From contig CBDBPH010000001.1 of the NCBI GenBank assembly GCA_965208665.1, positions 1,098,717 through 1,162,716 of the forward strand: a stretch of DNA of 64,000 nt, given 5' to 3'. This document shows, one piece after another, positions 5,791-51,293 of this stretch. Origin of the DNA: Dehalococcoidia bacterium. GTDB taxonomy: Bacteria > Chloroflexota > Dehalococcoidia > Bin125. The notes beneath the pieces are model-generated. The model was not told where the DNA came from, made no database searches, and worked only from the letters and a program-made list of their open reading frames with translations. Position numbers and translations under genes: made by a program. The stretch's first letter is position 1, and each line of letters starts with the position of its first letter.

Positions 5791-6046
5791 GCTGTTGCTC
5801 GTTCCTTACTCGCTCTTGCTCCGAGCCGATGCGCTTGCGGGTGCATTGGCACGAATACAGGGTCAAAGCCGCTGGTTGATCGGGCCGGCGGTACGCCGGC
5901 GGTCATCAACCTCAGGTCGGCCTCGACCCTTCCCACGCCGAACCGCCTCCGCGGTAGGCGCGTGAAGTTCAACAATATCCCAACTCAAGCCAACCCTGCA
6001 AGAATCCCCACGCACCTGCGACCGGATTGCATCTGTTGTCTGGCTG

Positions 6047-6964
6047 TCAGACCCCAGCGTAGGAGTGCAGACCGGAGATCCAGAGATTGACGCCCAGATA
6101 CGTGAACATCACGGCAAAGAAGCCCAACACGACGATCCAGGCGCTCCGCGCTCCGCGCAGTTGGCGCAGTCCACGACCGTGGATGTAGACCGCAAAGATC
6201 AGCCATGTCACCAGAGCGGCGGTCTCCTTCGGATCCCAGCCCCAATAGCGGCCCCAGGCGTCGTTCGCCCAGAACGCGCCCAGCGCGACCCCGGCCGCCA
6301 GCAGGGGAAACCCAACAAGGACCGCTCGATAGGTCAGCTCGTCGCAGCGCTCGGCCGAGGGCAACCATTCGTAGCGGCCGCCCAGCACGGCGACCCGCGC
6401 CGGAAATCCCTGTACCAGGTGCATCACCGCGCCGCCAAACGCGACCGCCAGCACCGCGTAGGAGAGGATCATCAGAGCCACATGGATCGTCAACAGCGTT
6501 GGACTCTGCAGCGCGGGTACCAGCACTTCCTGCCCGCCGCTCGGGAATGCCAGTGCCGATCCGTACAGCCCGCAGGCGACCGGAAGCACGAACGCTCCCG
6601 CCAGCCTCGTACCGGCGCGCAACTCGAAAATGCCATAGAGCAGCACAATGGCCACGCCGAATGCCATGGAAAACTCGAACAAGTTGCTGTATGGGGCGTG
6701 ATTCAGTGCGATCGAGCGCATCACCAATCCGGCAATCCCCAGGGCGGCCGCCGTCCACACGCTCAGCGTGGCGATCCCGCCCAGCGTCGGCGAGCGAAGC
6801 GGCTCAGGTTCGGGGGCCGGAAGCGAGGGCTCGGTCACTGCCACTCGCCGCGACGCCCAGGCGAAACGGAATCGCGGTTGCAATGCGTACAGCACCGACG
6901 CCAGCGCGGCGCAGCCAGCGGCGACAAAGCTCGCCCAAAGCAAGAACAGCGCGCCCTCAGCCAT
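6047..6964 (-). CDS. ccsA: Cytochrome c-type biogenesis protein CcsA/ResC (system II heme handling)
   Basis: Multi-pass membrane protein with the tryptophan-rich WWD motif FWANDAWGRYWGWDPKETAAL. Start moved to the internal MAEGALF (ATG at 6964) because the upstream R-rich 22 codons of the track ORF look spurious. Confidence 0.8.
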   Translation of the reverse strand: MAEGALFLLWASFVAAGCAALASVLYALQPRFRFAWASRRVAVTEPSLPAPEPEPLRSPTLGGIATLSVWTAAALGIAGLVMRSIALNHAPYSNLFEFSMAFGVAIVLLYGIFELRAGTRLAGAFVLPVACGLYGSALAFPSGGQEVLVPALQSPTLLTIHVALMILSYAVLAVAFGGAVMHLVQGFPARVAVLGGRYEWLPSAERCDELTYRAVLVGFPLLAAGVALGAFWANDAWGRYWGWDPKETAALVTWLIFAVYIHGRGLRQLRGARSAWIVVLGFFAVMFTYLGVNLWISGLHSYAGV

Positions 6965-7838
6965 CGCTGGTCTCCGAGTTCTCCGACGCCGCCGCCTCTG
7001 CGTCCGCCTTCGCCTCCGCCTTGAGCGCATCCGATCGACGCGGGGCTCGCGCTTCGCCGAACGTCAATCGACGGAATCCTTCGGACCACGGGATTCGGCC
7101 TGCTCGCGCGGCCTGCTGAGACCGATTACGCATCCGCTTCGCCATCTCCTCGCGATTCGGCGCCTGGACCTGCGAGGCGTGGCGTAGGAGGGCATCGATT
7201 CGACGGTCGAGTTGGTCGGACACGTCAACGAAGTAGTTCGGCTCATTGCTCCCGGCGAGCAGGACCGTGTTGACCCGCACCGGTTCGACGCCCGTCGCTA
7301 CCTGCTCCGCGTAGGAGTTGGCATTGCGAGAGAGGGGAAAGACCGCATCCAAGGCCGCGATACCGACCGTGCGATGGTCCCGATGATTGAACCCGCGATA
7401 GCCGTCCCAGGTGATCATCAGCTCGGGTCGGACATCGCGCAGTACGCGCACCATCTGTCCGCGAAACTCTGAGCCGTCTTCCACGTGACCGTCGGGGACT
7501 CGCAAGAAGATGCAGCGCCTGATCCCTAGCTCCGAGGCAGCCGCTTCCTGCTCGGCTTCGCGTAGGGCGCCAAGATCGGCCGGCCCCAGCATCGGATCCT
7601 TGGTGCCCTTGTCTCCGCTCGTGACGAGACAGAACGTGACTTCCCAGCCGTCATCCGACAACTGGGCCACTGTCCCGCCGCAGGTGAATTCGATGTCGTC
7701 CGGATGCGCCATCACGACCAGCGCTCGGCGCGCCTCCGCAGGAGCCTCGGCGTCCGGCATGTCGGCTCCCAACTTCTCCGATGCGGCGTGGTCCTCTAAC
7801 TCGCCGCCACTAACAGCGACTCCACCGAGTCCGGGCAA
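6957..7838 (-). CDS. PIG-L/LmbE family N-acetylglucosaminyl deacetylase (MshB/BshB-like)
   Basis: AHPDDIEFTCGGT matches the LmbE/PIG-L zinc-deacetylase signature (AHPDDE). The true start may be the internal MPDAEAP near 7760. The 3' end overlaps ccsA. Confidence 0.75.
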   Translation of the reverse strand: MPGLGGVAVSGGELEDHAASEKLGADMPDAEAPAEARRALVVMAHPDDIEFTCGGTVAQLSDDGWEVTFCLVTSGDKGTKDPMLGPADLGALREAEQEAAASELGIRRCIFLRVPDGHVEDGSEFRGQMVRVLRDVRPELMITWDGYRGFNHRDHRTVGIAALDAVFPLSRNANSYAEQVATGVEPVRVNTVLLAGSNEPNYFVDVSDQLDRRIDALLRHASQVQAPNREEMAKRMRNRSQQAARAGRIPWSEGFRRLTFGEARAPRRSDALKAEAKADAEAAASENSETSDG

Positions 7839-16990: not shown

Positions 16991-18097
16991 TCAACCAGAC
17001 AACTCTCGCTCCAGCTCCAGGCGCGACCAGGCGGCATCGATCCCGGCCAACACGCCGCCGCTGACCAGCGAATGACCGCCCATCATCACGGCCGAGTCCT
17101 GGAGCATCGAGACCAATCCGCGCAACCGTTCATCCGTGATCACGTCCCAGCGGCCGAGGTCCGCCCAGAATCGGTCGCAACGTGAGACATCCCAACCGAG
17201 ATGAGAGAGAAACGGGCGGGTGTCCCAGAGGGTCGCATCGCCCAGGCCGTCAAGCGCCAACAAGAACCCGTCCTGCCCGGCCCACTCATACAGCTCACCC
17301 AGCAGGGACCGAGCGCGACGCTGACGCGATCGTAGCCCGCGCTCCTCCGACAACACCCTGACCCGACAGGACGTGTCGCGATCTACTGCCGCCCAGTCCG
17401 AGCCGCTCACTCGTCCGGCGATCATGAGCTCGGCATCTTGCCGCGTCATGACGTCGAAGACCGTGAACGCCAACTGGACCGGCTCATCCAACTCAGGCTG
17501 ACGCGCGAGTGCGGCGCTTGTCGCTTGGCCGATCTCCAGCGATCCCACACTCGCAGCAGCCTTCAACACCGTTACGTCTGCCGGTGTGTCGATGTCCAGT
17601 ACGGAACGCGCCGACCGCTCATACGACACGACTGGTACATCACTGCCATCCCTGATCAGCAACGCGAATCGGTTGTCAACCGATTCGCCGGCCACGCAAC
17701 TCAGCAAGCGGCCAGCGGGCACCCCGATCCAGTCGCAGGAGAACATTCGGTTGGCCGTCGCCACGCCTGACTCGATCGCCTCACGCACCGACGACCAATC
17801 ATCTACGGTCATCGCCGGCATGCCGGAACCGGCGTAGCAGACCGGCCCACTCACATCGGCGGACGCCGCTGTCACGATGTCGCCGATCAGTTGCTCCTCA
17901 GTGGTTTCCTGGACAGACAGGTCGCCAATGGATTCGGTCGAAAACACCCGCACTCGATCGAATCCCGCCGCCTGCGCGCGCTCCGCCGTGTCTCGGAGCA
18001 CTGCGGCGCGCACCTCGTCGACCATCCGAACCGGAACGCAGTCATCACCAAATGGCCGATAGCAAAGCCAGAACTCTGAATTGCGACTGCCCGACAT
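16991..18097 (-). CDS. Hypothetical protein (possible MobA-like nucleotidyltransferase-fold N-domain)
   Basis: 369 aa from MSGSRNSEFW (ATG at 18097). Contains VLDIDTPADV, which resembles the DIDTPEDL motif of MobA/CofC-like NTP transferases, with no further recognisable signature. The upstream 41 codons of the track ORF overlap comF and were trimmed. Confidence 0.45.
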   Translation of the reverse strand: MSGSRNSEFWLCYRPFGDDCVPVRMVDEVRAAVLRDTAERAQAAGFDRVRVFSTESIGDLSVQETTEEQLIGDIVTAASADVSGPVCYAGSGMPAMTVDDWSSVREAIESGVATANRMFSCDWIGVPAGRLLSCVAGESVDNRFALLIRDGSDVPVVSYERSARSVLDIDTPADVTVLKAAASVGSLEIGQATSAALARQPELDEPVQLAFTVFDVMTRQDAELMIAGRVSGSDWAAVDRDTSCRVRVLSEERGLRSRQRRARSLLGELYEWAGQDGFLLALDGLGDATLWDTRPFLSHLGWDVSRCDRFWADLGRWDVITDERLRGLVSMLQDSAVMMGGHSLVSGGVLAGIDAAWSRLELERELSG

Positions 18098-18098
18098 C

Positions 18099-18812
18099 TC
18101 AGTCTGCCCGAGCCGCCGTCCAGGCATCGACGGCCCTCGCTCCGGCGGCGAGCAGCGTCCGAGCCGCCTCTGAAAGCGTCGAAGTCGTCGTCGACACATC
18201 GTCCACCAGCAGCACTCCACGACCCTTCACGAGCGATTCCTCGGCGGCGAAGGCGTTGGTCACGATGCTCCGCCGATCGACGCGCGACTTGGCCTGCGCC
18301 TGTCTCGGACCCCACCAGCCTCGACGACGCAGCGCCCGTGTCTCCAGCCTCATCCGTGTCCGTTCCGCCACGACCCGCGCCAGGTGCTCCGCCTGATTGC
18401 CGCCGCGTCGGCGCTTGCGCAACAGCGGGATCGGAATCGGAACGATCATCTCGATGTCGCGGGCTGGCTCGATCTTTCCACTTGTTTCGACCAACAGCCG
18501 CGCCAGATCCTTGACGCCGCGATGCTTCAGCGCCAGCACGGCCGCGCGCGCCGGTCCGTCGTACACGAATCCGGAGCGCAACTCGCGCAGGGGTAATGGC
18601 CTGGACAGGCAGTTTCGGCAGACCGGCGACTCCGAGGTCAGCCAGCAGTGGCGGCAACGCTTGCCGTCGGCACGCTGCATGAGTGCGCGACACGGGCCGC
18701 AAATCAGGTCGCCGGCCGCTCCACACGACGCACAGTGTGGGGGCAAGGCGACATCGATCAGGGCCTGCAGGGCGCCCAGCGCGAGACCGACCGGCCGATA
18801 GACTGGATCCAT
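18099..18812 (-). CDS. comF: ComF-family phosphoribosyltransferase (ComFC-like)
   Basis: Start trimmed to MDPVYRP (ATG at 18812). N-terminal Zn-ribbon CxxC...CxxC (PPHCASCGAAG...CGPC; CRHCW...CRNC) followed by a PRTase domain (VLLVDDVSTTTSTL). The upstream 123 codons of the track ORF are S/R-rich and rejected. Confidence 0.8.
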   Translation of the reverse strand: MDPVYRPVGLALGALQALIDVALPPHCASCGAAGDLICGPCRALMQRADGKRCRHCWLTSESPVCRNCLSRPLPLRELRSGFVYDGPARAAVLALKHRGVKDLARLLVETSGKIEPARDIEMIVPIPIPLLRKRRRGGNQAEHLARVVAERTRMRLETRALRRRGWWGPRQAQAKSRVDRRSIVTNAFAAEESLVKGRGVLLVDDVSTTTSTLSEAARTLLAAGARAVDAWTAARAD

Positions 18813-19515
18813 GCGCCTCACCGTACAACTCTTCGCCAACCTCGCCGAGACCTGTGGAGCGCGCCAGATCGAACTCTGCGACCTGCCACAGCCGCTGACC
18901 GCGTCGCTGGTCATGGACGCGTTCGTCGACCGATTCCCGCACGTCGACGGGATGCGCGATTCGATCATGTTCGCGGTCAACGCCGAGTACGTCTCAGCCG
19001 ACCATCCAATCACCTCCTGCGACGAAGTCGCTCTGATCCCGCCGGTGAGCGGAGGTTCGAATAGCGACGCGCTGTTCAAGATCACGCGCGACGAGCTCGA
19101 CCCGACGGAACTGCACGACCTCGTCCTCTCGCCCGAGGCTGGGGCCGTCTCGCTCTTTTTCGGGGTCGTCCGCAACAACAATCTCGGCCGCGATGTCGAT
19201 TTCCTCGAGTACGACGCCTACCCGGCGATGGCCACCAAGGTCATGCGTCAGATTGCCGACGAGATCCGGGAACGCTGGGATGTGCTCGACATCGCCATGC
19301 ACCACCGCATTGGACGTCTGGAGATCGGCGAGGCTTCGGTCGCCGTTGCGGTTGCCTCAGCCCATCGAGGCGAGGGGATCGAGGCTTGCCACTACGGCAT
19401 CGACCGGCTCAAGGCCATCGTTCCAATCTGGAAGAAAGAGGTCTGGGCCGACGGCGAGGAATGGATCGAAGGCTCGCTCACCCCCTCCGCCGAGGTCGAC
19501 GCCGGGACTGAGTGA
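18811..19515 (+). CDS. Fused MoaD-MoaE molybdopterin synthase (MoaX-like)
   Basis: The N-terminal ~80 aa are a MoaD-like ubiquitin-fold (MRLTVQLFANLAE...ALIPPVSGG) ending in the GlyGly motif. The sequence continues in-frame into the MoaE domain (LFFGVVRNNNLGRDVDFLEYDAYPAMA...HRIGRLEIGEASVAVAVASAHRGEG...IVPIWKKE). Confidence 0.85.
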   Translation: MRLTVQLFANLAETCGARQIELCDLPQPLTASLVMDAFVDRFPHVDGMRDSIMFAVNAEYVSADHPITSCDEVALIPPVSGGSNSDALFKITRDELDPTELHDLVLSPEAGAVSLFFGVVRNNNLGRDVDFLEYDAYPAMATKVMRQIADEIRERWDVLDIAMHHRIGRLEIGEASVAVAVASAHRGEGIEACHYGIDRLKAIVPIWKKEVWADGEEWIEGSLTPSAEVDAGTE

Positions 19516-20929
19516 TTATCACCGCCTGCTGATCGGTCCGATAGTCTTTCGCCTTGATGTGATGGACCACACCCCGCTGGCTGTCGAGCAGCCGCGATGC
19601 CAGTCGTGGGTCGAGGCTCTCGGGCGGCACGTTGGTCGTAATCAACGTCGGCGACCGCCGGAGGTAGCGGGACGCGCAGAGTTGGTAGAGCTTCTCGCTC
19701 GCCCACTCAGTCGGCTGATGAGCACCCAAGTCGTCGAGAACCAAGAGGTCCACGTCCTTGAGTCGGGCGAACATTGACTCAAACGACGCTTCGCCCTCGT
19801 CCCGGTACGAAGCCCGCAAGGCATCAAGCAGCTCGGGAACCACAGCAAAACAGACGCTGTTACCGGCGGCGAGCCGATCGTTCGCTGCCGCCGCTGCCAG
19901 ATGAGTCTTGCCAACACCAGTGCCTCCGATCAATGTCAACCAGCCGCCGGGTTCTTCCGTCCAGTCCATCACCGCCCGCTTCGACACCGCTAGATTCTCT
20001 GCGTCACCGCGGCCGCCCAGCCCTTGCTCGCGGAATCCGTCGAACGAGTATTGCGACAACACCTCCTCGGTCATCCCGCCGAACTCGCGATACCGCCCGC
20101 CAGCCTGCGCCGGTCCCAGCTCGAGTCGCAGCAGCTCCAGCGTCAAGAACGACTGCAGTCCAATCGCAGAAAGATCCGCCGCCTCCGCGACCAACACCGT
20201 CCGCAAACCGCTGTTTCTCCGGTGATTGAGCAGTTGGAACAGCTTCTCTCGAGCCCAGTCGGTCGGGGAGATGCAGTCGAGATCGTCCAGGATCAGGAAT
20301 GCCGCGTCGCGCACGTGCTCAAACAGGAGCGCGTACGAGAGGTCGCCGCCGCTGGGCGCATTCATCGCCGCCCGCAATCGATCCAGAAGGTCGGCCGCGA
20401 CGAAGTACAGCGCGGGTCGGCCGGCCGCGATCCGCCGATTCGCCATTTCCGCCGACAGACGCGTGCGTCCCGAGCCCGCAACGCCGGTCAGCAGCAGCCA
20501 GCCCGGTTCGTCGTCGCTGTCGGCGAAGTCGCATGCCGATGCTGCCGGTTCCTGCGATGCCTCTTCGTCGCTCAGCCGAGCATCCGACAATGGTCCCAGA
20601 TTACTCAGCCGCTGCAGCCGCGCCGCGGTGAGCGCTTCTTCCTCCGCTCGCCGACATTCGCACGGCTGAACCCGGCCGAAGTCCGGATCGCCAACCGGTC
20701 GTGAGACGCGGACGTAGCCGGCCCCACCGCAGATTTCGCAGCGCGGTTCACCGTCCGGCGTCCAGAGCGAATCGTCGCGCTCCGGCGCGTCCGTATCACT
20801 CCCGGAAGAGGTGTCGGTAGCGCGACGATTCCAGCCCGCCAGCAGCGGACCGAGCCGTTGCATCTCCGCCATCGCGACCCTCCTTGTCTCGACCCGAAGC
20901 GTCCCAGCGCTCGAGGATGGCCTGGACAT
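19478..20929 (-). CDS. DnaC/DnaI/IstB-like AAA+ helicase-loader protein with N-terminal zinc ribbon and internally duplicated ATPase module
   Basis: Zn-ribbon CEICGG...CEC. Module 1 has GVAGSGRT (Walker A Lys replaced by Arg) and LILDDLD. Module 2 has GGTGVGKTHLA, LLVLDDLG and a TLITTN sensor region. The true start is probably downstream of 20929 (for example VAMAEM) because of overlap with the upstream gene. Confidence 0.75.
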   Translation of the reverse strand: MSRPSSSAGTLRVETRRVAMAEMQRLGPLLAGWNRRATDTSSGSDTDAPERDDSLWTPDGEPRCEICGGAGYVRVSRPVGDPDFGRVQPCECRRAEEEALTAARLQRLSNLGPLSDARLSDEEASQEPAASACDFADSDDEPGWLLLTGVAGSGRTRLSAEMANRRIAAGRPALYFVAADLLDRLRAAMNAPSGGDLSYALLFEHVRDAAFLILDDLDCISPTDWAREKLFQLLNHRRNSGLRTVLVAEAADLSAIGLQSFLTLELLRLELGPAQAGGRYREFGGMTEEVLSQYSFDGFREQGLGGRGDAENLAVSKRAVMDWTEEPGGWLTLIGGTGVGKTHLAAAAANDRLAAGNSVCFAVVPELLDALRASYRDEGEASFESMFARLKDVDLLVLDDLGAHQPTEWASEKLYQLCASRYLRRSPTLITTNVPPESLDPRLASRLLDSQRGVVHHIKAKDYRTDQQAVIITQSRRRPRRRG

Positions 20930-21500
20930 ATCGCCAGTTGCGGACGTTGTTCGCCGCCGCCTCGGCGAACGCGTCGTGTAACCACTCCAAGCCGAAGCGC
21001 GATTCCGCCGATTTGACCTCTTCCGCCAGGATCGGCGGCATCACGGTCCCGAATGCACTCTGCCAGATTTCGGGGACCGAGGAGTGGATGGGCTCACGGC
21101 CGTACACCGGCTGCGCGACTGGCGGCAGCGAGGCGGACTCCAGCGCCCTCCGGCCGTCGGCGTCGTTGAGCGCAATCCACTCCGTCCAGACGCCGTCCTG
21201 GATCGCACGTGCCCGCAACAACGAGCCACGCTCCACCGCGAGGTTGAGTCCGTCCGCAAACGCCTCGTTGACCTCGCGTTGCCCGCACATGTTGGCCAAC
21301 GCCTCAATCATCGCGCGTGTCTCCCGGAGGTCTTTGCTTGACAGACGGCGCGGGTATCGGCGCACCCTGGAGAGTCCGTCAGCGGTGTACAACGTCACGA
21401 TGAGCTCCGCCGGGTCGGACATCAACGGCGCCAGATCGCGCAGCAACGCCTGAGGCAGCGGCGTCACCGGCGCACCAGAGGCGAAGCCGTCGAACGTCAT
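20796..21500 (-). CDS. DnaD-domain protein (DnaD/DnaB-loader family, DDBH2 C-terminal domain)
   Basis: 234 aa. The C-terminal region FGLEWLHDAFAEAAANNVRNWRYVQAILERW carries the YxxxIxxxW signature of the DnaD/DnaB_2 domain. Its start overlaps the dnaB stop. Confidence 0.65.
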   Translation of the reverse strand: MTFDGFASGAPVTPLPQALLRDLAPLMSDPAELIVTLYTADGLSRVRRYPRRLSSKDLRETRAMIEALANMCGQREVNEAFADGLNLAVERGSLLRARAIQDGVWTEWIALNDADGRRALESASLPPVAQPVYGREPIHSSVPEIWQSAFGTVMPPILAEEVKSAESRFGLEWLHDAFAEAAANNVRNWRYVQAILERWDASGRDKEGRDGGDATARSAAGGLESSRYRHLFRE

Positions 21501-22987
21501 CAGAACTCATCCATCCCCGGTTCGGGCTGCGCATAGAAGTCCTCGAACTTGGCCACCGCAGGCACAAAGCGCACATCAACTCGACCCACCGCGCCATGTC
21601 GATGCTTCGCCACCAGCAGTTGGGCGACCTCGTGTTGGCCGCCGTGAATCGCGTCCGCGACCAGATCATCCTGGTAATCCTCACGGTCGTACATGTCCTC
21701 GCGGTAGATGAAGATCACCACGTCGGCGTCCTGCTCGATCGAGCCGCTCTCGCGCAGGTCCGAGAGTTGCGGTACCGGCGGATGGCGTCGCTCCACCGCA
21801 CGCGAGAGCTGCGACAGAGCCAGGATCGGGATTTCCAGCTCGCGCGCGATCTCCTTCAGCGTTCGCGAGATCAGCGAAATCTCGCTGACTCGGTTCGTGT
21901 CGGCCGGCGCTCGCGAAAACCCATGCACGAGCTGGATATGGTCCACAATGATCAAGCCCAGACCGTTCTGGCCGCTCCCGCGTCGATGCGCCTGCTCCTG
22001 CAGCCTCGTGTGCAGATTTCGCGACTTGGCCCGAATCTCGGCCAGCGTCTGTCCGGCCGTGTCATCGATGTGGATCTCCGCCCCGCTCAGCAGCCCAATG
22101 GCTCGAGAGATGCGACCTTCCTGTTCCTCGGTGTGCCGACCTACACGCAGCCGGCCGCTCTCCACACGCGACTCGGCCGAGACCAATCTCGACGCGACCT
22201 GCTCAGCCGACATCTCGAGAGAAAAGATCGCCACGGCCAACTGCTGGCCGAGCGCCGCATTGCGAGCGATTGTCAGCGCGAGCGCCGATTTGCCCACCGA
22301 TGGACGAGCCGCCAGCACGACCAGGTCCGAGCCGTGCATGCCCTCGTTCAGCAGCACGTCCAAATCCTGGAAACCGGTGCGAGTCGGCCCCTGGACTCCT
22401 GAGTCCTCCTGCGACCCATCACTCAGGACATCTCCCAGGAGATCCTGGAGCAACCGGAAGTCCTGACGCCGATCGGCGCCGCGAATGCCGTAGAGCAGTT
22501 CCACCGCGCGCGTCAGCGACTCGCCGACGTTGGGATCGGCCTCGTAGGCAAGCTCACCAATCTCGCCGGCGGCGCGGATCATGTCACGATACGTCGCCGC
22601 CCGCTGGACCAGTCGCGCGTAGTGCTCCGCCCCGACGGTCGCCGGCAACTCGTAGACGAGCTGGTTCAGATATGCCTGTCCACCGGCCTCCGACAGCCGA
22701 TTCTGGGCTCCCAACTCCGCGGCCACCGTGATCTGGTCGATCGCTTCGTAGCGATCAAAGACGGCCAGCACCGCCGCGAAGATCGCACGGTGACGCGGAT
22801 CCATGAAGTCTTCGGGGACGAGCATCCCCGCCAGTCGCTCGTAGATGCCCGGCTCAGCGAGGATCGCACCGAGGACAGACTGCTCGGCCGGCTGGTCCTG
22901 CGGCACGCCTCTCGGCGCCGCACGCGTCCGGCCGTTTTGGCCGAACTCGTCCGTCAACTCGTCGTATGCGGGATCGCTAGAGACCAC
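21500..22987 (-). CDS. dnaB: Replicative DNA helicase DnaB
   Basis: 495 aa with an N-terminal helical domain (SVLGAILAEP) and a RecA-like domain with GARPSVGKSALAL Walker A and IIVDHIQL Walker B. Conserved rplI-dnaB linkage. Confidence 0.95.
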   Translation of the reverse strand: MVSSDPAYDELTDEFGQNGRTRAAPRGVPQDQPAEQSVLGAILAEPGIYERLAGMLVPEDFMDPRHRAIFAAVLAVFDRYEAIDQITVAAELGAQNRLSEAGGQAYLNQLVYELPATVGAEHYARLVQRAATYRDMIRAAGEIGELAYEADPNVGESLTRAVELLYGIRGADRRQDFRLLQDLLGDVLSDGSQEDSGVQGPTRTGFQDLDVLLNEGMHGSDLVVLAARPSVGKSALALTIARNAALGQQLAVAIFSLEMSAEQVASRLVSAESRVESGRLRVGRHTEEQEGRISRAIGLLSGAEIHIDDTAGQTLAEIRAKSRNLHTRLQEQAHRRGSGQNGLGLIIVDHIQLVHGFSRAPADTNRVSEISLISRTLKEIARELEIPILALSQLSRAVERRHPPVPQLSDLRESGSIEQDADVVIFIYREDMYDREDYQDDLVADAIHGGQHEVAQLLVAKHRHGAVGRVDVRFVPAVAKFEDFYAQPEPGMDEF

Positions 22988-23026: not shown

Positions 23027-23614
23027 CTAGGCCTCGACGGCTTCGACCTGTCCTGCCTCTTCCGCTTCTTCTGCCTCTTCGGCTGCTGCTTCCGCGGCTT
23101 CCGCTTCGTCGACTTCCGCCACTACCTCGGCGAAGCTCAAGTCCACGCTGTCTGCGTCCGGCTCGACGATCACGCGTACCTGAGCCGAGACGTTGCGTGT
23201 CAGCCGCACGCGGACATCCTCCGCTCCCAGTGTGCGCAGGGACTGCGCCAGCAGCACCTGTCGATGCTCGATCGCCGCGTCCGGCACCGACTCCGACGCG
23301 ATCTCCGTCAGCCGCTCGGCGATGTCGCGGGCCGTGATCGAACCGAATAGCCGGCCTTGCTCGCCGACCCGAGCCTGGAACGTCATCTCCGCCCCGGCGA
23401 TCGCCAGCGCGACCGGACTCGCCTCGCCGTCCAGCTTCTCCTGCCGTATGGCGTCCGCCTGCGCCAGGCGTTCGGCGCGGGCCAGGTTGTTCTTGGTCGT
23501 CGGACCTGCCAGCCCGCGCGGCAGCAAGTAGTTCCGCGCGAAGCCGTTCTTCACCTCTTTGATCTCGCCGACCAGCGCCGTCCCCTCGACCTCTTCGAAA
23601 AACACGACCTGCAT
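23027..23614 (-). CDS. rplI: 50S ribosomal protein L9 with acidic C-terminal tail
   Basis: Start set at MQVVFFEEVEG (ATG at 23614), which matches the L9 N-terminus. The body KNGFARNYLLPRGLA is L9. The C-terminus EAEAAEAAAEEAEEAEEAGQVEAVEA is an acidic extension. Confidence 0.9.
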   Translation of the reverse strand: MQVVFFEEVEGTALVGEIKEVKNGFARNYLLPRGLAGPTTKNNLARAERLAQADAIRQEKLDGEASPVALAIAGAEMTFQARVGEQGRLFGSITARDIAERLTEIASESVPDAAIEHRQVLLAQSLRTLGAEDVRVRLTRNVSAQVRVIVEPDADSVDLSFAEVVAEVDEAEAAEAAAEEAEEAEEAGQVEAVEA

Positions 23615-23732
23615 CAGATTGCTCCGCTCGATCCCTCGGACATACCTCACAACCATACCGACCCATGGCAATCGACCCAACACACATTGCAACAGACGAA
23701 CGTGCGTTCACTATAGAATTCGTGTGCGTCAT

Positions 23733-26700
23733 TTACAACCCAGCCGCGCTGTCACCCGCCGGAGCCCGTGATGCCGGCGGCTCGGCGATCGTCGCGCTCC
23801 CTCGCTCGCCGAGCGTCTTCCCAACCATCTGCACGACCTGATCGTTCGCCCGCAACCGCCACTCATCCGAGCACCGCAGCACTTCCACCCGATCACCGCC
23901 GCGAATGCGCAGATACACCAAGTCTGGGCCGGCGTGCATCATCTTCATCGCGGTCAGAGCGCCCTCGAGTTGCTCCATCAACTCAACATCGGCCGACTCA
24001 TCGCCCGACTCATCGATCGTGATCCAGAGGGCGGAACCGGCGGTTTCACCGACCGGTGCCGAAACCGGCAGCGGCGCCGGTTCCGCGGCTGCAGTCGGTG
24101 CAGGCAGTGGCTGCCGAGGTTTCAGCATCCAGGGCGGCGGCGACGCCTGCTTGATCGGCGGGACCGTCACGCCGGCTGCCGATGCGGCCGCGGCCTCGGC
24201 CTGCGTCTGCAGCGCTGGCGCGGACGACATCTGCTCGCTCCACGGCTCGACCGATTCCACAGCCAGGGTCAGCCGATCCATCCTGGCCCTGATGCTGACC
24301 GTCACGATCACGATCTGGTTTGGCTGCCATAGCTCCCGGGTCCGCGCCCATTGATCCGGCCAGACCGTAACCTCGGCCGTGCCGGACAGATCCTCCAACA
24401 TGATCGCCGCAAACGGATCGCCCTTCCGCGTCGTCAGCGAGCGCACGCTGCCCACCAGTCCGGCCACCGTCTGCCTGTTCCCGACCATGTCCTCGGTCAG
24501 CTCCGACAGCTGCGCATCGACCCGACCCTGCAGCGCCCGCGTCGCCGCCTGCAGCGGGTGCTCAGAGACGTAGGCGCCCAGCAACTCGCGTTCCCAGTTC
24601 AACTGCTCATGCGGCGTCGCGTCCATGTCTTCCTCGAGCGTGACGCTCGGCGTCGGTGTCTCGACCTCCGTGCCGAACAGATCGAACATCGACGTCTGAC
24701 CGCTGTCGCGCAGCTCTTGCGCACGGCGAGCCCGTTTGATGATGTCCTCCGCCGCCGCCACCATCGCCCCGCGCGACTCGATCGAATCGAACGCTCCAGC
24801 CTTGGCCAGCGCCTCCAGCGCCCGACGGTTCATCGACTTCGTATCCAACCGCTCGGCGAGATCGCTGGCGCTGTCGATTGGGCCGTTCTCCTTGCGCTCC
24901 TCGATCAACGGCTCCACCGCCGCTCGACCGACGTTCTTGATTGTCCCCAGGCCGAAACGAATCGCGCTTCGGCCGTCGGCCATCTTCTCCAGCGTGAACG
25001 TCGCCTCGGAGCGATTCACGTCGGGCAGCAGCAGCGGAATCCCCAACCGGCCGCACTCCGCCGCCGCTTCCCGCACTCGATCGCTGTTACCCGAGGCGGC
25101 CCGCAGCACGGCCGCCATGTACGACGCCTTGTGGTTCGCCTTGAACCAGGCCGTCTGATACGCAATCGCCGCATACGAGACCGCGTGCGCCTTGTTGAAC
25201 GCATAGCCGGCGAACGGCTCGATCAGCTCAAAGATCGTCCGTGCGTCACCCTCGGAGTACCCGTTCGCCAGCGCTCCTTCGGTGAAGTTGCCCCGTTCGC
25301 CCTCCATCACCGAAGCGATCTTCTTGCCCATCGCCTTCCGCATGATGTCCGCCTGCCCCAGGGTGTAGCCGGCGAACTTGCGCGCGATGTGCAACACCTG
25401 ATCCTGGTAGACGATCACGCCGTACGTATCGTCAAGGACCTCTCCGAGGTCGTCGTGCGGATACGACACACCGACGCGCCCGTGCTTGCTTTCAATGAAG
25501 CGGGGGATGTGCTCCATCGGCCCGGGGCGATACAGAGCCAACAGCGCCGCCAGATCTCGAATCGACGTCGGTTTCAGGTCTTCCACGACCCGCCGCATTC
25601 CGCCTGACTCCAGCTGGAACACACCGAATGTGTCGCCGGTCGCCAGCCGTTCGTACGTCGCCGGATCACCGTCCGGCAGATTGAGATAGTCGACCTCAAC
25701 GCCCTCGTGCTCGCGGACCAGGGCCACCGCCTCCTCAAGGATCGTCAGGTTCGTCAGACCGAGGAAATCCATCTTCAACAGGCCGACCGCCGCTACCTCG
25801 TCCATCCCCCACTGCGTCATCGGGATGAAGACGTCGTCCGACGACTCGTTCACCGGTCGCCGGAGCGGCACATTCTCGGCCAGCGGCTCCTGTGAGATCA
25901 CGACCCCAGCCGCGTGGGTTGAGGTGTTGCGCACCACCCCGTTCAGCCGCTGCGCGTAGGACAACAACTCGGCGACCGTCGGATCGTCCTGCTGCGCCGC
26001 CTGCAAATCCTGCGACTGTGCAATCGCATCCGCCACCGAGATGTTGAGCTGGTTCGGCACCATCCTGGCCACACGATCGGTGTCGCCAAGCGGCACGCCC
26101 AACGCGCGACCCGAGTCGCGGATCGCCGCCTTCGCTCCCAGCGTGCCAAAGGTGATGATCTGCGCCACGCGATCATGCCCGTACTTCTCGGCGACGTAGC
26201 GGATCACTTCATCGCGCCGATTATCGGCGAAATCCATGTCGATATCGGGCATTTCCCGGCGTTCCAGGTTGAGGAAGCGCTCAAACACCAGGTCGTACTC
26301 CATCGGATCGATGTCGGTGATATCGAGGCAGTACAAGACCAGGCTCGCCGCCGCAGACCCGCGCACCGCTCTCGCGATCCCGCGATTCTTCGCGAAGTGG
26401 GCGAAGTCCATCACGATCAAGAAGTACTCGGCAAAGCCGGTCTCCTCGATCACGTGCAGCTCGTATGCCAGTCGATCGCGATGACCCTGAGGCGGTGCCC
26501 CGTAACGCTGATCCAGGCCGCGGTAGGCGATATCAGATAGGTGTTCCAGGGCCGTCATGCCCTCGGGGATGTCCGGCTGTGGCAGGCGTAGACGGTCAAA
26601 CTCCAGCTTGACATCGCAACGTTCCGCGACGAGCTGAGTATTCGTCACCGCCTCCTGCAGATCGCTGAAGTTGTCCAGCATGTACTGCTCGGACGTGAGG

Positions 26701-27431
26701 TAGAAATCCTCTCCGTCAAACCGGAAGCGCTTCTCATCCGTCCGAACCGCGTTAGTGCCGATGCACAGCAGCAGATCATGCGCGTCGTGATCGCCCGGCT
26801 CGCAGTAGTGCGCGTCCTGGGTCGCGACGAGAGGCACGTCCAGGTCGCGGGCCATCCTGACGGTGTGTTCCAGCATCGGCTCAAACTGGGGCAACGCCTC
26901 GTGCCGCTGGATCTCGAAGTAGTAACGGTCGTCGAAGACCTCGCGGTACCACTCGACAATCCGCTCGGCCTCCTGGAAGTCCTCACGTATCAGCGCGCGT
27001 TGCAGCTCCGACGAAGGACAGCCGGAGAGCGCGATGATCCCCTCGGAGTATGTGGAGAGCAACTCGCGGTCGATCCGCGGTCGGTAGTAGAAACCTTCAA
27101 GATGCCCGCGCGTCGAGAGTTGGATCAGGTTGCGCCAGCCGACCTGGTTCTGCGCCAGCAAGACCAGGTGAAACGAGTTGGACGCCGCCTCGCGGCCGTC
27201 CGAGCGATCCGTGCGGATACCCGGGGCAACGTACGCCTCCATCCCCAGGATTGGGCGCAGGCCTTCGCTCTCACAGGCCTGATAGAACTCCACGGCCCCA
27301 TACAGGTTGCCGTGGTCGGTGATCGCCAGGGAATCCTGACCCAGGCCTCTCGCCCGATCCACCAGCGCCGGAATCTTGGAAAGCCCATCCAACTCCGAGT
27401 ACTCGGTGTGCGTATGCAGATGAGCGAACAT
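23733..27431 (-). CDS. dnaE: DNA polymerase III alpha subunit
   Basis: 1232 aa. N-terminal PHP domain (HLHTHTEYSELDG), polymerase core, OB domain and a P/A-rich C-terminal extension. Confidence 0.97.
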   Translation of the reverse strand: MFAHLHTHTEYSELDGLSKIPALVDRARGLGQDSLAITDHGNLYGAVEFYQACESEGLRPILGMEAYVAPGIRTDRSDGREAASNSFHLVLLAQNQVGWRNLIQLSTRGHLEGFYYRPRIDRELLSTYSEGIIALSGCPSSELQRALIREDFQEAERIVEWYREVFDDRYYFEIQRHEALPQFEPMLEHTVRMARDLDVPLVATQDAHYCEPGDHDAHDLLLCIGTNAVRTDEKRFRFDGEDFYLTSEQYMLDNFSDLQEAVTNTQLVAERCDVKLEFDRLRLPQPDIPEGMTALEHLSDIAYRGLDQRYGAPPQGHRDRLAYELHVIEETGFAEYFLIVMDFAHFAKNRGIARAVRGSAAASLVLYCLDITDIDPMEYDLVFERFLNLERREMPDIDMDFADNRRDEVIRYVAEKYGHDRVAQIITFGTLGAKAAIRDSGRALGVPLGDTDRVARMVPNQLNISVADAIAQSQDLQAAQQDDPTVAELLSYAQRLNGVVRNTSTHAAGVVISQEPLAENVPLRRPVNESSDDVFIPMTQWGMDEVAAVGLLKMDFLGLTNLTILEEAVALVREHEGVEVDYLNLPDGDPATYERLATGDTFGVFQLESGGMRRVVEDLKPTSIRDLAALLALYRPGPMEHIPRFIESKHGRVGVSYPHDDLGEVLDDTYGVIVYQDQVLHIARKFAGYTLGQADIMRKAMGKKIASVMEGERGNFTEGALANGYSEGDARTIFELIEPFAGYAFNKAHAVSYAAIAYQTAWFKANHKASYMAAVLRAASGNSDRVREAAAECGRLGIPLLLPDVNRSEATFTLEKMADGRSAIRFGLGTIKNVGRAAVEPLIEERKENGPIDSASDLAERLDTKSMNRRALEALAKAGAFDSIESRGAMVAAAEDIIKRARRAQELRDSGQTSMFDLFGTEVETPTPSVTLEEDMDATPHEQLNWERELLGAYVSEHPLQAATRALQGRVDAQLSELTEDMVGNRQTVAGLVGSVRSLTTRKGDPFAAIMLEDLSGTAEVTVWPDQWARTRELWQPNQIVIVTVSIRARMDRLTLAVESVEPWSEQMSSAPALQTQAEAAAASAAGVTVPPIKQASPPPWMLKPRQPLPAPTAAAEPAPLPVSAPVGETAGSALWITIDESGDESADVELMEQLEGALTAMKMMHAGPDLVYLRIRGGDRVEVLRCSDEWRLRANDQVVQMVGKTLGERGSATIAEPPASRAPAGDSAAGL

Positions 27432-51028: not shown

Positions 51029-51114
51029 TGGTGCCGGGGGCAGGATTCGAACCTGCGAAGCCTTTCGGCGCCGGTTTTACAGACCGGTGGTATTAGCCAC
51101 TCACCCACCCCGAC
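51029..51114 (-). tRNA. tRNA-Tyr (anticodon GUA, long variable arm)
   Basis: Reverse complement reads GTCGGGGTGGGTGAGTGGCTAATACCACCGGTCTGTAAAACCGGCGCCGAAAGGCTTCGCAGGTTCGAATCCTGCCCCCGGCACCA. The anticodon loop CTGTAAA gives GTA, and the acceptor stem pairs GTCGGGG/CCCCGGC. Confidence 0.85.
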
Positions 51115-51217: not shown

Positions 51218-51293
51218 TGGAGCCCAAGGGGGGATTCGAACCCCCAACCTGCCGATTACAAATCGGCTGCGCTGCCAATTGCGCCACCTGGGC
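51218..51293 (-). tRNA. tRNA-Thr (anticodon UGU)
   Basis: Reverse complement reads GCCCAGGTGGCGCAATTGGCAGCGCAGCCGATTTGTAATCGGCAGGTTGGGGGTTCGAATCCCCCCTTGGGCTCCA. The anticodon loop TTTGTAA gives TGT. Confidence 0.85.

Follow-up and report, generated by a model that had tools for sequence, protein, structure and literature searches.

A tandem DnaC-type helicase loader of Chloroflexota with a catalytically degenerate first AAA+ module

The gene considered here lies on the minus strand of a 64,000-nucleotide (nt) stretch, hereafter the window, taken from contig CBDBPH010000001.1 (positions 1,098,717 to 1,162,716) of a Dehalococcoidia bacterium (assembly GCA_965208665.1). We read its product as the chromosomal loader of the replicative helicase DnaB in a Dehalococcoidia-related Chloroflexota bacterium, with binding and loading of DnaB as predicted functions. 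The protein carries two consecutive DnaC-type AAA+ modules that descend from an internal duplication; module 2 has the full set of catalytic motifs, and module 1 is best read as an ATPase-dead fold that is nevertheless maintained. The tandem arrangement sets the protein apart from all characterised loaders, but at the level of module 2 it belongs to the DnaC/DnaI group and is not a new kind of system.

The open reading frame (ORF; positions 19478-20929 of the window, minus strand, as are all features below unless stated otherwise) contains in translation every motif quoted in a sequence-only reading of the window, made without database searches. Three ATGs lie near its 5' end. Because only the one at 20872 follows a strong ribosome-binding site (AAGGAGG, positions -13 to -7), and because close homologues share the corresponding N-terminus MAEMQRLGPLL, ATG 20872 was chosen over the first ATG at 20929. 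This Shine-Dalgarno (SD) sequence (20879-20885) is 6 nt upstream of the ATG, within the coding sequence of the preceding dnaD-like gene. The resulting coding sequence (19478-20872) specifies 464 amino acids (aa) and a TGA stop. A downstream ATG or GTG start had been suspected on account of the overlap with that upstream gene; the suspicion was right as regards the start, but an overlap of 77 nt stays. Residues are numbered here on the 464-aa protein, and adding 19 gives the 483-aa numbering of the sequence-only reading.

The chain begins with a short conserved N-terminal peptide, followed by a four-cysteine ribbon, an 'SNLGPL' segment, module 1, a linker with the motif 'GGM...SFDGF', module 2 and a basic tail. 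The ribbon (CxxC...CxC; 20654-20740, residues 45-73) includes the CEIC...CEC motif found at residues 64-92 in 483-aa numbering; in the alignment designated A1, two of its cysteines (C71, C73) never vary, and the other two (C45, C48) are conserved to at least 90%. A Pfam scan of the N-terminal 121 residues returned only a weak match to DUF5351 (E 0.11). Its place in the chain, and an analogy to the N-terminal domains that DnaI and DnaC possess, make the putative zinc ribbon the presumed helicase-binding domain.

Pairwise alignment of the two modules, which had been proposed as a check on their tandem origin, gave 43% identity over 110 aa (E 2e-13) in a single BLASTP comparison. With profiles built from 58 members of the same lineage, hhalign matched the modules over 115 columns (probability 99.9%, E 2.7e-31), pairing residues 114-230 with 299-414, that is, from about 10 residues before strand beta-1 through strand beta-4. 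Module 1 in isolation exceeds the gathering score of Pfam IstB_IS21 (31.1 versus 24.1 bits), which removes the concern that it might fail to align to AAA+ profiles. In an AlphaFold2 model based on a 34-sequence alignment (mean predicted local distance difference test score, pLDDT, 80; predicted template modelling score, pTM, 0.47), five strands and their helices follow in the same order in both modules, with pLDDT mostly 80-93 in module 1. The duplicated unit takes in the segment that precedes the AAA+ core: 'SNLGPL...' before module 1 matches 'GGM...FDGF' before module 2 and 'SGI...FENY' of Escherichia coli DnaC. In the first copy (RLSNLGPL..., 20561-20611) the F-x-x-F part of this DnaC-type linker has degenerated. 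The second copy, YREFGGM...SFDGF (20033-20092), lies within the inter-module linker (19979-20116) and aligns to DnaC residues 29-75. These comparisons bear out the proposal of an internal tandem duplication, and indicate that the duplicated unit was the pre-AAA linker together with the AAA+ core.

Module 2 (19553-19978, residues 299-440) has the motifs of a complete DnaC-type ATPase. Its Walker A motif GGTGVGKT (19904-19927; residues 335-342 in 483-aa numbering) aligns to K112 of DnaC, and all family members examined (91/91) have this lysine; likewise, the window protein and its 120 closest homologues all have the P-loop GxGK[TS]HL (121/121). The LDD of Walker B (LLVLDDLG, 19724-19747; 395-402 in 483-aa numbering) aligns to DnaC D169/E170, and the sensor I segment TLITTN (19631-19648; 428-433 in 483-aa numbering) to N203. 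The stretch PRLASR (19592-19609) supplies the arginine coupler and arginine finger, equivalent to DnaC R216 and R220; both arginines (R423, R427) are invariant in alignment A1. So are D443 and R445 of a DYR motif (19538-19546), which, lying where the AAA+ core ends towards the C-terminus, is expected to be sensor II. Over seven catalytic positions the pattern is KDDNRRR, and in the window protein this complete set occurs in module 2 only.

Module 1 (20117-20533, residues 114-252) retains the full five-strand AAA+ core and is catalytically degenerate. Its Walker A motif, GVAGSGRT (20462-20485; residues 149-156 in 483-aa numbering), has arginine in place of the lysine. Walker B (FLILDDLD, 20276-20299; 211-218 in 483-aa numbering) keeps the acidic pair, with D196, D197 and D199 invariant in alignment A1. 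Strand beta-4 (RTVLVAE, 20183-20203) aligns to PTLITTN of module 2 and has lost the sensor I asparagine, and the module alignments contain nothing alignable to the arginine coupler and finger box beyond this strand. The seven-position pattern is accordingly RDDEGFA, in which Walker B alone remains. In E. coli DnaC the substitutions K112R, N203A and R220D each abolish ATPase activity (Puri et al. 2021, PMC8213410). Translation and motif tables thus agree with the sequence-only reading that the first P-loop is degenerate and the second intact. Its further suggestion, that the first module is inactive, is now the best reading of a module affected at the P-loop lysine, the sensor I asparagine and the arginine-finger box alike, the first of these changes being identical to the K112R that leaves DnaC ATPase-dead. 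The same DnaC K112R protein, devoid of ATPase activity, still loads DnaB in vitro at a level near that of the wild type (PMC8213410).

The loss of catalysis is not the neutral erosion of a domain without use. Within the lineage that has the P-loop arginine, pairwise identity averages 0.68 over the module 1 core and 0.64 over that of module 2, and many module 1 columns are invariant in alignment A1, including the motifs DLLDxLR and PTxWAxEK. Since module 1 is as conserved as module 2 and has so many invariant columns, the alignments point to purifying selection. Alignment with DnaC places the equivalents of its single-stranded DNA (ssDNA)-binding residues K143, F146, S177 and Y179 (PMC8213410) in these two motifs, where module 1 has R, M or Y, T and W. 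Across all 91 proteins tabulated, the four positions (R, an aromatic residue or M, T or S, and W) hardly vary in either module.

When each GTDB species was represented by one genome, a scan recovered at least 578 relatives, and the locus counts given here concern the best 80. All of these belong to Chloroflexota, a few evidently mislabelled metagenome-assembled genomes (MAGs) aside, and all match across both modules; they are drawn from Dehalococcoidia, Anaerolineae, Caldilineaceae, Ardenticatenales, Tepidiformaceae and Thermoflexaceae. Two of the loci, L008 (dnaB-dnaD and a tandem loader) and L025 (dnaB and a tandem loader), come from MAGs labelled Acidimicrobiia and Proteobacteria, labels that probably reflect mis-binning or mislabelling rather than horizontal transfer. 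A single two-module ORF is found in 80/80 of the best species loci and in all 120 best database homologues. In 79/80 of the loci module 1 has a canonical P-loop, GxxGxGKT(H)L, and the Walker B motif LDDLG, and many also have TTN and an 'ERLRSRL' arginine box. The impression that a fused two-module loader is in itself distinctive has therefore to be modified: the tandem is standard in Chloroflexota, mostly with GKT in both modules, and it is the decay of module 1 that is specific to a lineage.

Arginine replaces the module 1 lysine only in the window protein and its closest relatives. Among the window protein and the 120 closest homologues, 74 have arginine and 34 lysine in this P-loop, and some have lost the motif entirely (PSPART, PAAERT, SDDARLRL). 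An alignment of representative module 1 sequences forms an ordered series of five stages. Module 1 is complete in the first (L012, L025, L039, L047); the second, found in most Dehalococcoidia, has lost the sensor I asparagine and kept the arginine box; in the third the arginine box is degenerate and the lysine still present (P0090, P0097, L002); the fourth, represented by the window, has arginine for lysine; and in the fifth the P-loop glycines and threonine are gone as well (P0072, P0086). Because module 1 has GKT in 79/80 species loci, the sequences indicate that its dead form is a lineage-specific end state of stepwise decay within one Dehalococcoidia-related lineage.

Decay has not always affected the same module. 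All seven catalytic positions are intact in both modules in just one of the 91 proteins (L058), and loaders of the Anaerolineae type show the reverse polarity, with module 1 complete (K, DD, N, R, R, R) and module 2 without the sensor I asparagine and sometimes without the sensor II arginine (L039, L047, L049, L051, L055, L061, L067, L071 and L074-L076; loader at about 6001-7300 of each locus). The number of modules varies too. At locus L161 a DnaD-like gene overlaps a one-module loader of 268 aa (P0268, 533-1339). Locus L162, on a 64-kb contig, has dnaB, dnaD and a four-module loader of 827 aa (P0121, 4001-6484), the first three modules of which are near-copies of one another. A further protein of 792 aa (P0122) seemingly has three or more modules. 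The one-module and four-module forms at the same locus suggest that a loader already functional with a single module was the base to which the extra module was added.

Each of the 80 best viral relatives (80/80) combines the same ribbon with one module in an ORF of about 250-330 aa, and on this basis the tandem is a cellular elaboration of a phage-type one-module loader. Single-module cellular relatives are rare, lie on tiny contigs and are nested among Anaerolineae-type modules; they were not adopted as the ancestral cellular state, secondary loss being equally possible. In a neighbour-joining tree 79 of the 91 module 1 sequences group in a clade of their own, as do the 79 module 2 sequences that belong to them, with very short internal branches (0.004-0.03), and 12 Anaerolineae-type proteins place both of their modules close together. 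Given these short branches and the placement of the Anaerolineae-type proteins, no choice is claimed between a single phylum-wide duplication and recurrent duplication or gene conversion.

How such a chain would work on the helicase is constrained by the distribution of its motifs, since an AAA+ ATP site needs an arginine finger from a neighbouring module. The zinc ribbon would bind the helicase, and the module 1 pseudo-ATPase would sit between ribbon and motor in a structural or ssDNA-contacting role. Module 2 would be the only ATPase. Its ATP site would be completed by module 2 of another chain, as in the classical spiral of DnaC on DnaB, and the module 1 copies would lie beside or on top of this spiral, forming a second layer or a spacer between it and the helicase. 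Binding and hydrolysis of ATP by module 2 would control ssDNA engagement and release of the loader, as in E. coli DnaC. Contacts between module 2 copies across chains, with module 1 as second layer or spacer, are probable in our judgement, because module 1 has no finger and a dead P-loop while module 2 has an invariant finger and coupler; neither a 1-2-1-2 spiral nor an isolated 1-2 pair would then contain a competent ATP site. The sequence-only reading had raised the idea of a fused pseudo-dimer with a DnaC-like dimer interface. As a working unit such a pair is disfavoured by the motifs, since module 1 offers module 2 no arginine finger.

Several points weigh against the arrangement just described, or against its premise of an inactive module 1. 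The P-loop arginine may still permit nucleotide binding in module 1, the nucleotide being clamped by the finger of module 2; relatives with PAAERT or SDDARLRL in place of the P-loop, which cannot bind nucleotide, nevertheless keep the module 2 finger. The sensor I asparagine varies in both modules across the phylum, so that its loss alone is weak evidence of inactivity. The sensor I position accepts other polar residues in some AAA+ proteins and is a soft criterion. The argument for module 2-module 2 contacts assumes that the conserved arginine-finger residues serve the ATP site. The AlphaFold2 model, with its pTM of 0.47, gives the relative position of the modules with low confidence, and the four-module relative is awkward for a simple picture of two stacked rings.

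The same motif pattern bears on an alternating pseudo-hexamer, in which three chains would contribute six modules in the order 1-2-1-2-1-2 to one DnaC-like spiral; three loaders would then serve each DnaB hexamer, and half of the sites would be non-catalytic, as in clamp loaders or the origin recognition complex (ORC). Two linked modules with one helicase-binding domain would suit a 3:6 ratio, as would the N-terminal collar of DnaB, which is a trimer of dimers. Across the phylum, moreover, usually one module only has the full motif set, as expected if alternate sites were freed of catalysis. Every composite site of such a spiral would, however, be defective, the ATP of module 2 facing a finger-less module 1 and the finger of module 2 facing a dead P-loop, and yet the module 2 motifs are invariant; the one-module and four-module relatives also misfit a fixed three-by-two scheme. 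We therefore consider this arrangement unlikely.

Module 1 might instead act as a cap or regulator that docks in cis on the oligomerisation or ATP face of module 2, so that the loader would stay an inactive monomer until module 1 is displaced by DnaB, DnaD or ssDNA; loader auto-inhibition would here take a covalent form. An AAA+ fold without finger or functional P-loop would be a natural chain terminator for an AAA+ filament, and the model has a flexible loop between the modules (pLDDT <50 at residues 255-258). There is also a precedent in a phage protein reported to inhibit DnaI by binding to its AAA+ domain (PMC4887207). Against a cap, module 1 has the equipment of a complete ATPase throughout most of the phylum, and it keeps the equivalents of the DnaC ssDNA-binding residues, for which a pure cap would have no need. 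This role appears rather improbable to us, and contact between module 2 copies of different chains remains the preferred reading.

It is tempting to generalise that Chloroflexota load their helicase with a covalently multimerised DnaC-type loader of one, two or four modules, in which one lineage keeps a different module catalytic from another (the second here, the first in the Anaerolineae type), the stoichiometry or geometry is other than a 6:6 single tier, and the non-catalytic modules are pseudo-ATPases that bind ssDNA, in the manner of clamp loaders and ORC. This broader proposal is a tentative one, and somewhat less likely than not to hold.

The assignment to replication was weighed against the annotation. 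Pfam IstB_IS21 matches the protein twice (94.6 bits), and Bac_DnaA also matched; in NCBIfam the DnaC, DnaI and PRK08116 models match below their equivalog cutoffs, no specific model of that collection being matched above its curated cutoff, and database names for the homologues are only 'ATP-binding protein' or 'DNA replication protein DnaC'. Among solved structures the family profile matches E. coli DnaC best, in its complex with DnaB (6QEL, E 1.4e-24), followed by DnaI (2W58, E 2e-18), Aquifex DnaC, IstB and DnaA, and Foldseek searches with single modules returned DnaI, DnaA, IstB and DnaC. A role as an IS21-type IstB transposition helper, or as another mobile-element or defence nucleoside triphosphatase, is suggested by the name of the top Pfam family and by a match of 114.6 bits to NCBIfam IS21_help_AAA (NF038214). 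That score, however, is far under the cutoff of 200; no transposase adjoins the gene, its neighbours being dnaB, a DnaD-domain gene, rplI, dnaE and moaDE; the same synteny recurs in about 80 species; and the best solved relative is DnaC, not IstB. On these grounds the alternative was rejected as highly improbable. Even less credence is due to an artefact, whether two adjacent DnaC-like genes merged by a sequencing or assembly error or a fusion of two unrelated genes, a possibility for which nothing speaks beyond its having been raised a priori in the sequence-only reading: one uninterrupted two-module ORF recurs in independent assemblies throughout the 80 loci and 120 homologues, modules of the same protein are on average 43% identical (28-63%), and Bacillus phage DnaC-like loaders are 34-37% identical to module 2 of the window.

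The gene has in all likelihood been met before as a family. A survey of helicase loaders (Brezellec et al. 2016, PMC5109545) assigns to each genome of the Chloroflexi exactly one resident dna[CI] and no DciA, and reckons this a single domestication of a phage gene; the window family is almost certainly the same as this 'domesticated dna[CI]'. The tandem architecture, decay and copy-number variation of the Chloroflexi loader are not described in that account: 'tandem' and 'duplicat' are absent from its main text, and 'two AAA' and 'fusion' from the supplements searched. The full-text literature searched likewise holds no description of a tandem DnaC-type loader, its decay or its copy-number variation; most subscription journals lie outside that literature, so that this absence is not proof.

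Among known systems, E. coli and Aquifex DnaC (6QEL/6QEM, 3ECC) are close solved counterparts. Module 2 aligns to them over the AAA+ core and the preceding linker, in the catalytic motifs and in the four ssDNA-binding positions, and the loader gene of the window sits with dnaB. Unlike DnaC with its one module, the window loader has two AAA+ modules per chain, the first catalytically dead in this lineage; its N-terminus is a four-cysteine zinc ribbon instead of a helical hairpin, and its gene is operonic with a DnaD-domain gene. The order of a CxxC...CxC ribbon followed by a DnaC-type AAA+ module is shared with the single-module 'DnaC-like helicase loaders' of Firmicutes phages and Clostridia (PRK08116 type, for example from Bacillus phage IEBH). 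Their model, PRK08116 (NF005992), is the best NCBIfam model for the window protein at 166.2 bits, under the cutoff of 189; such loaders have one module against the two of the window, and it is to these that the identity of Bacillus phage proteins to module 2 refers. Bacillus subtilis DnaI, whose structures are found by sequence and by fold, also combines a zinc-binding N-terminal domain with a DnaC-type AAA+ domain and works with a DnaD-family protein. It differs from the window loader, which has tandem AAA+ modules, a gene in the dnaB operon with a dnaD overlap of about 80 nt, and a ribbon region without a Pfam match save the weak one to DUF5351.

Division of labour between active and degenerate AAA+ sites is a recurrent theme, known from p97, NSF and ClpB and from the clamp loader and ORC. 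With these type II tandem AAA+ proteins, and with the clamp loader and ORC, the window loader shares the unequal catalytic competence of its modules, by analogy only: p97, NSF and ClpB belong to other AAA+ clades, and both window modules fall in the DnaC/IstB/DnaA group. A Foldseek search with the full-length model does put p97 chains at the top, but with a TM-score of about 0.29 and a root-mean-square deviation of 13-18 Å, and the stacked D1-D2 geometry is not reproduced.

The loader is the last gene of an rplI-dnaB-dnaD-loader operon, which dnaE precedes on the same strand of the window. The DNA polymerase III alpha subunit gene dnaE (23733-27431; Pfam PHP, DNA_pol3_alpha, finger and HHH_6) lies directly upstream of rplI (23027-23692; Ribosomal_L9_N and Ribosomal_L9_C), which encodes ribosomal protein L9 and is the usual chromosomal neighbour of dnaB. 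The replicative helicase gene dnaB (21500-22987, 495 aa) matches Pfam DnaB and DnaB_C with E 8e-85, and the DnaD-domain gene that follows it (20796-21500, 234 aa) scores 32.4 bits with TIGR01446 DnaD_dom against a cutoff of 24.95, with a weak match to Pfam DnaB_2. The order dnaB-dnaD-loader is kept in nearly all of the 80 species loci, with rplI in front in most. The dnaB of the window contains no intein. In related genomes an intein-type insertion occurs in dnaB of L162 (1433-3259, Pfam Intein_splicing), and in L016, L049 and L067 about 500 nt separate the two halves of the tblastn match to dnaB.

The junctions of these genes are tight. One base is common to the stop codon of dnaB (TGA, 21500-21502) and the start codon of the dnaD-like gene (ATG, 21498-21500), and for 77 nt (20796-20872) the 3' end of the latter and the 5' end of the loader gene are dual-coding, with the loader in the +1 frame; dnaB, dnaD and the loader are thus physically coupled. 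Of the 80 related loci, about 65 have for the loader an ATG or GTG that follows an SD sequence and is situated 74-95 nt (most often 80, 83 or 86) ahead of where the dnaD stop codon ends; the frame is +1 in every case. Both peptides encoded by the overlap are conserved: the DnaD tail ends in ...KYIKGKYGHLVKR, and the loader begins with MExLGDILKR... The conserved DnaD tail within the overlap (L001-L080, locus position about 5900-6100) includes ...KGKYGHLVKR. An overlap of such length kept across a phylum is unusual, and suggests tight translational coupling of two loading factors. A programmed frameshift joining DnaD to the loader was considered briefly; the conserved SD-preceded ATG or GTG makes independent initiation the simpler explanation.

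At its 3' end the loader gene overlaps tail to tail, by 38 nt (19478-19515), with a convergent moaD-moaE fusion on the plus strand (18811-19515; ThiS and MoaE domains in one ORF). Elsewhere in the window, Pfam at E 1e-4 gives no match to a 409-aa ORF (16991-18220, minus strand) that lies between an SHMT gene and a gene for a ComF-like phosphoribosyltransferase; the 5' part of this ORF may be over-extended. At the gathering threshold, Rfam models match only two tRNA genes in the 64 kb (51032-51114 and 51221-51293, minus strand).

To our knowledge, nearly all that is understood of helicase loading in bacteria comes from E. coli DnaC, B. subtilis DnaI and, lately, DciA, and all the DnaC/DnaI-type loaders studied have one AAA+ module per chain and bind DnaB in a 6:6 ratio. 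The picture of six loaders per helicase may not apply in Chloroflexota, where the tandem loader of a whole phylum amounts to a natural experiment on the number and placement of the ATP sites that a loader spiral requires. The experiment passes by degrees from loaders with two competent modules to loaders in which one is dead, and includes one-module and four-module variants, and the window protein itself is a natural linked-subunit construct with a K112R-type change in every second module. It offers a handle on the part of ATP hydrolysis in loading as opposed to release, on ssDNA contacts separable from catalysis, and on whether loader stoichiometry is fixed or variable, and shows how domesticated phage loaders are remodelled after their capture. 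Such a loader would surprise a replication specialist, and it makes the usage of loader ATP sites and the stoichiometry of loading directly testable.

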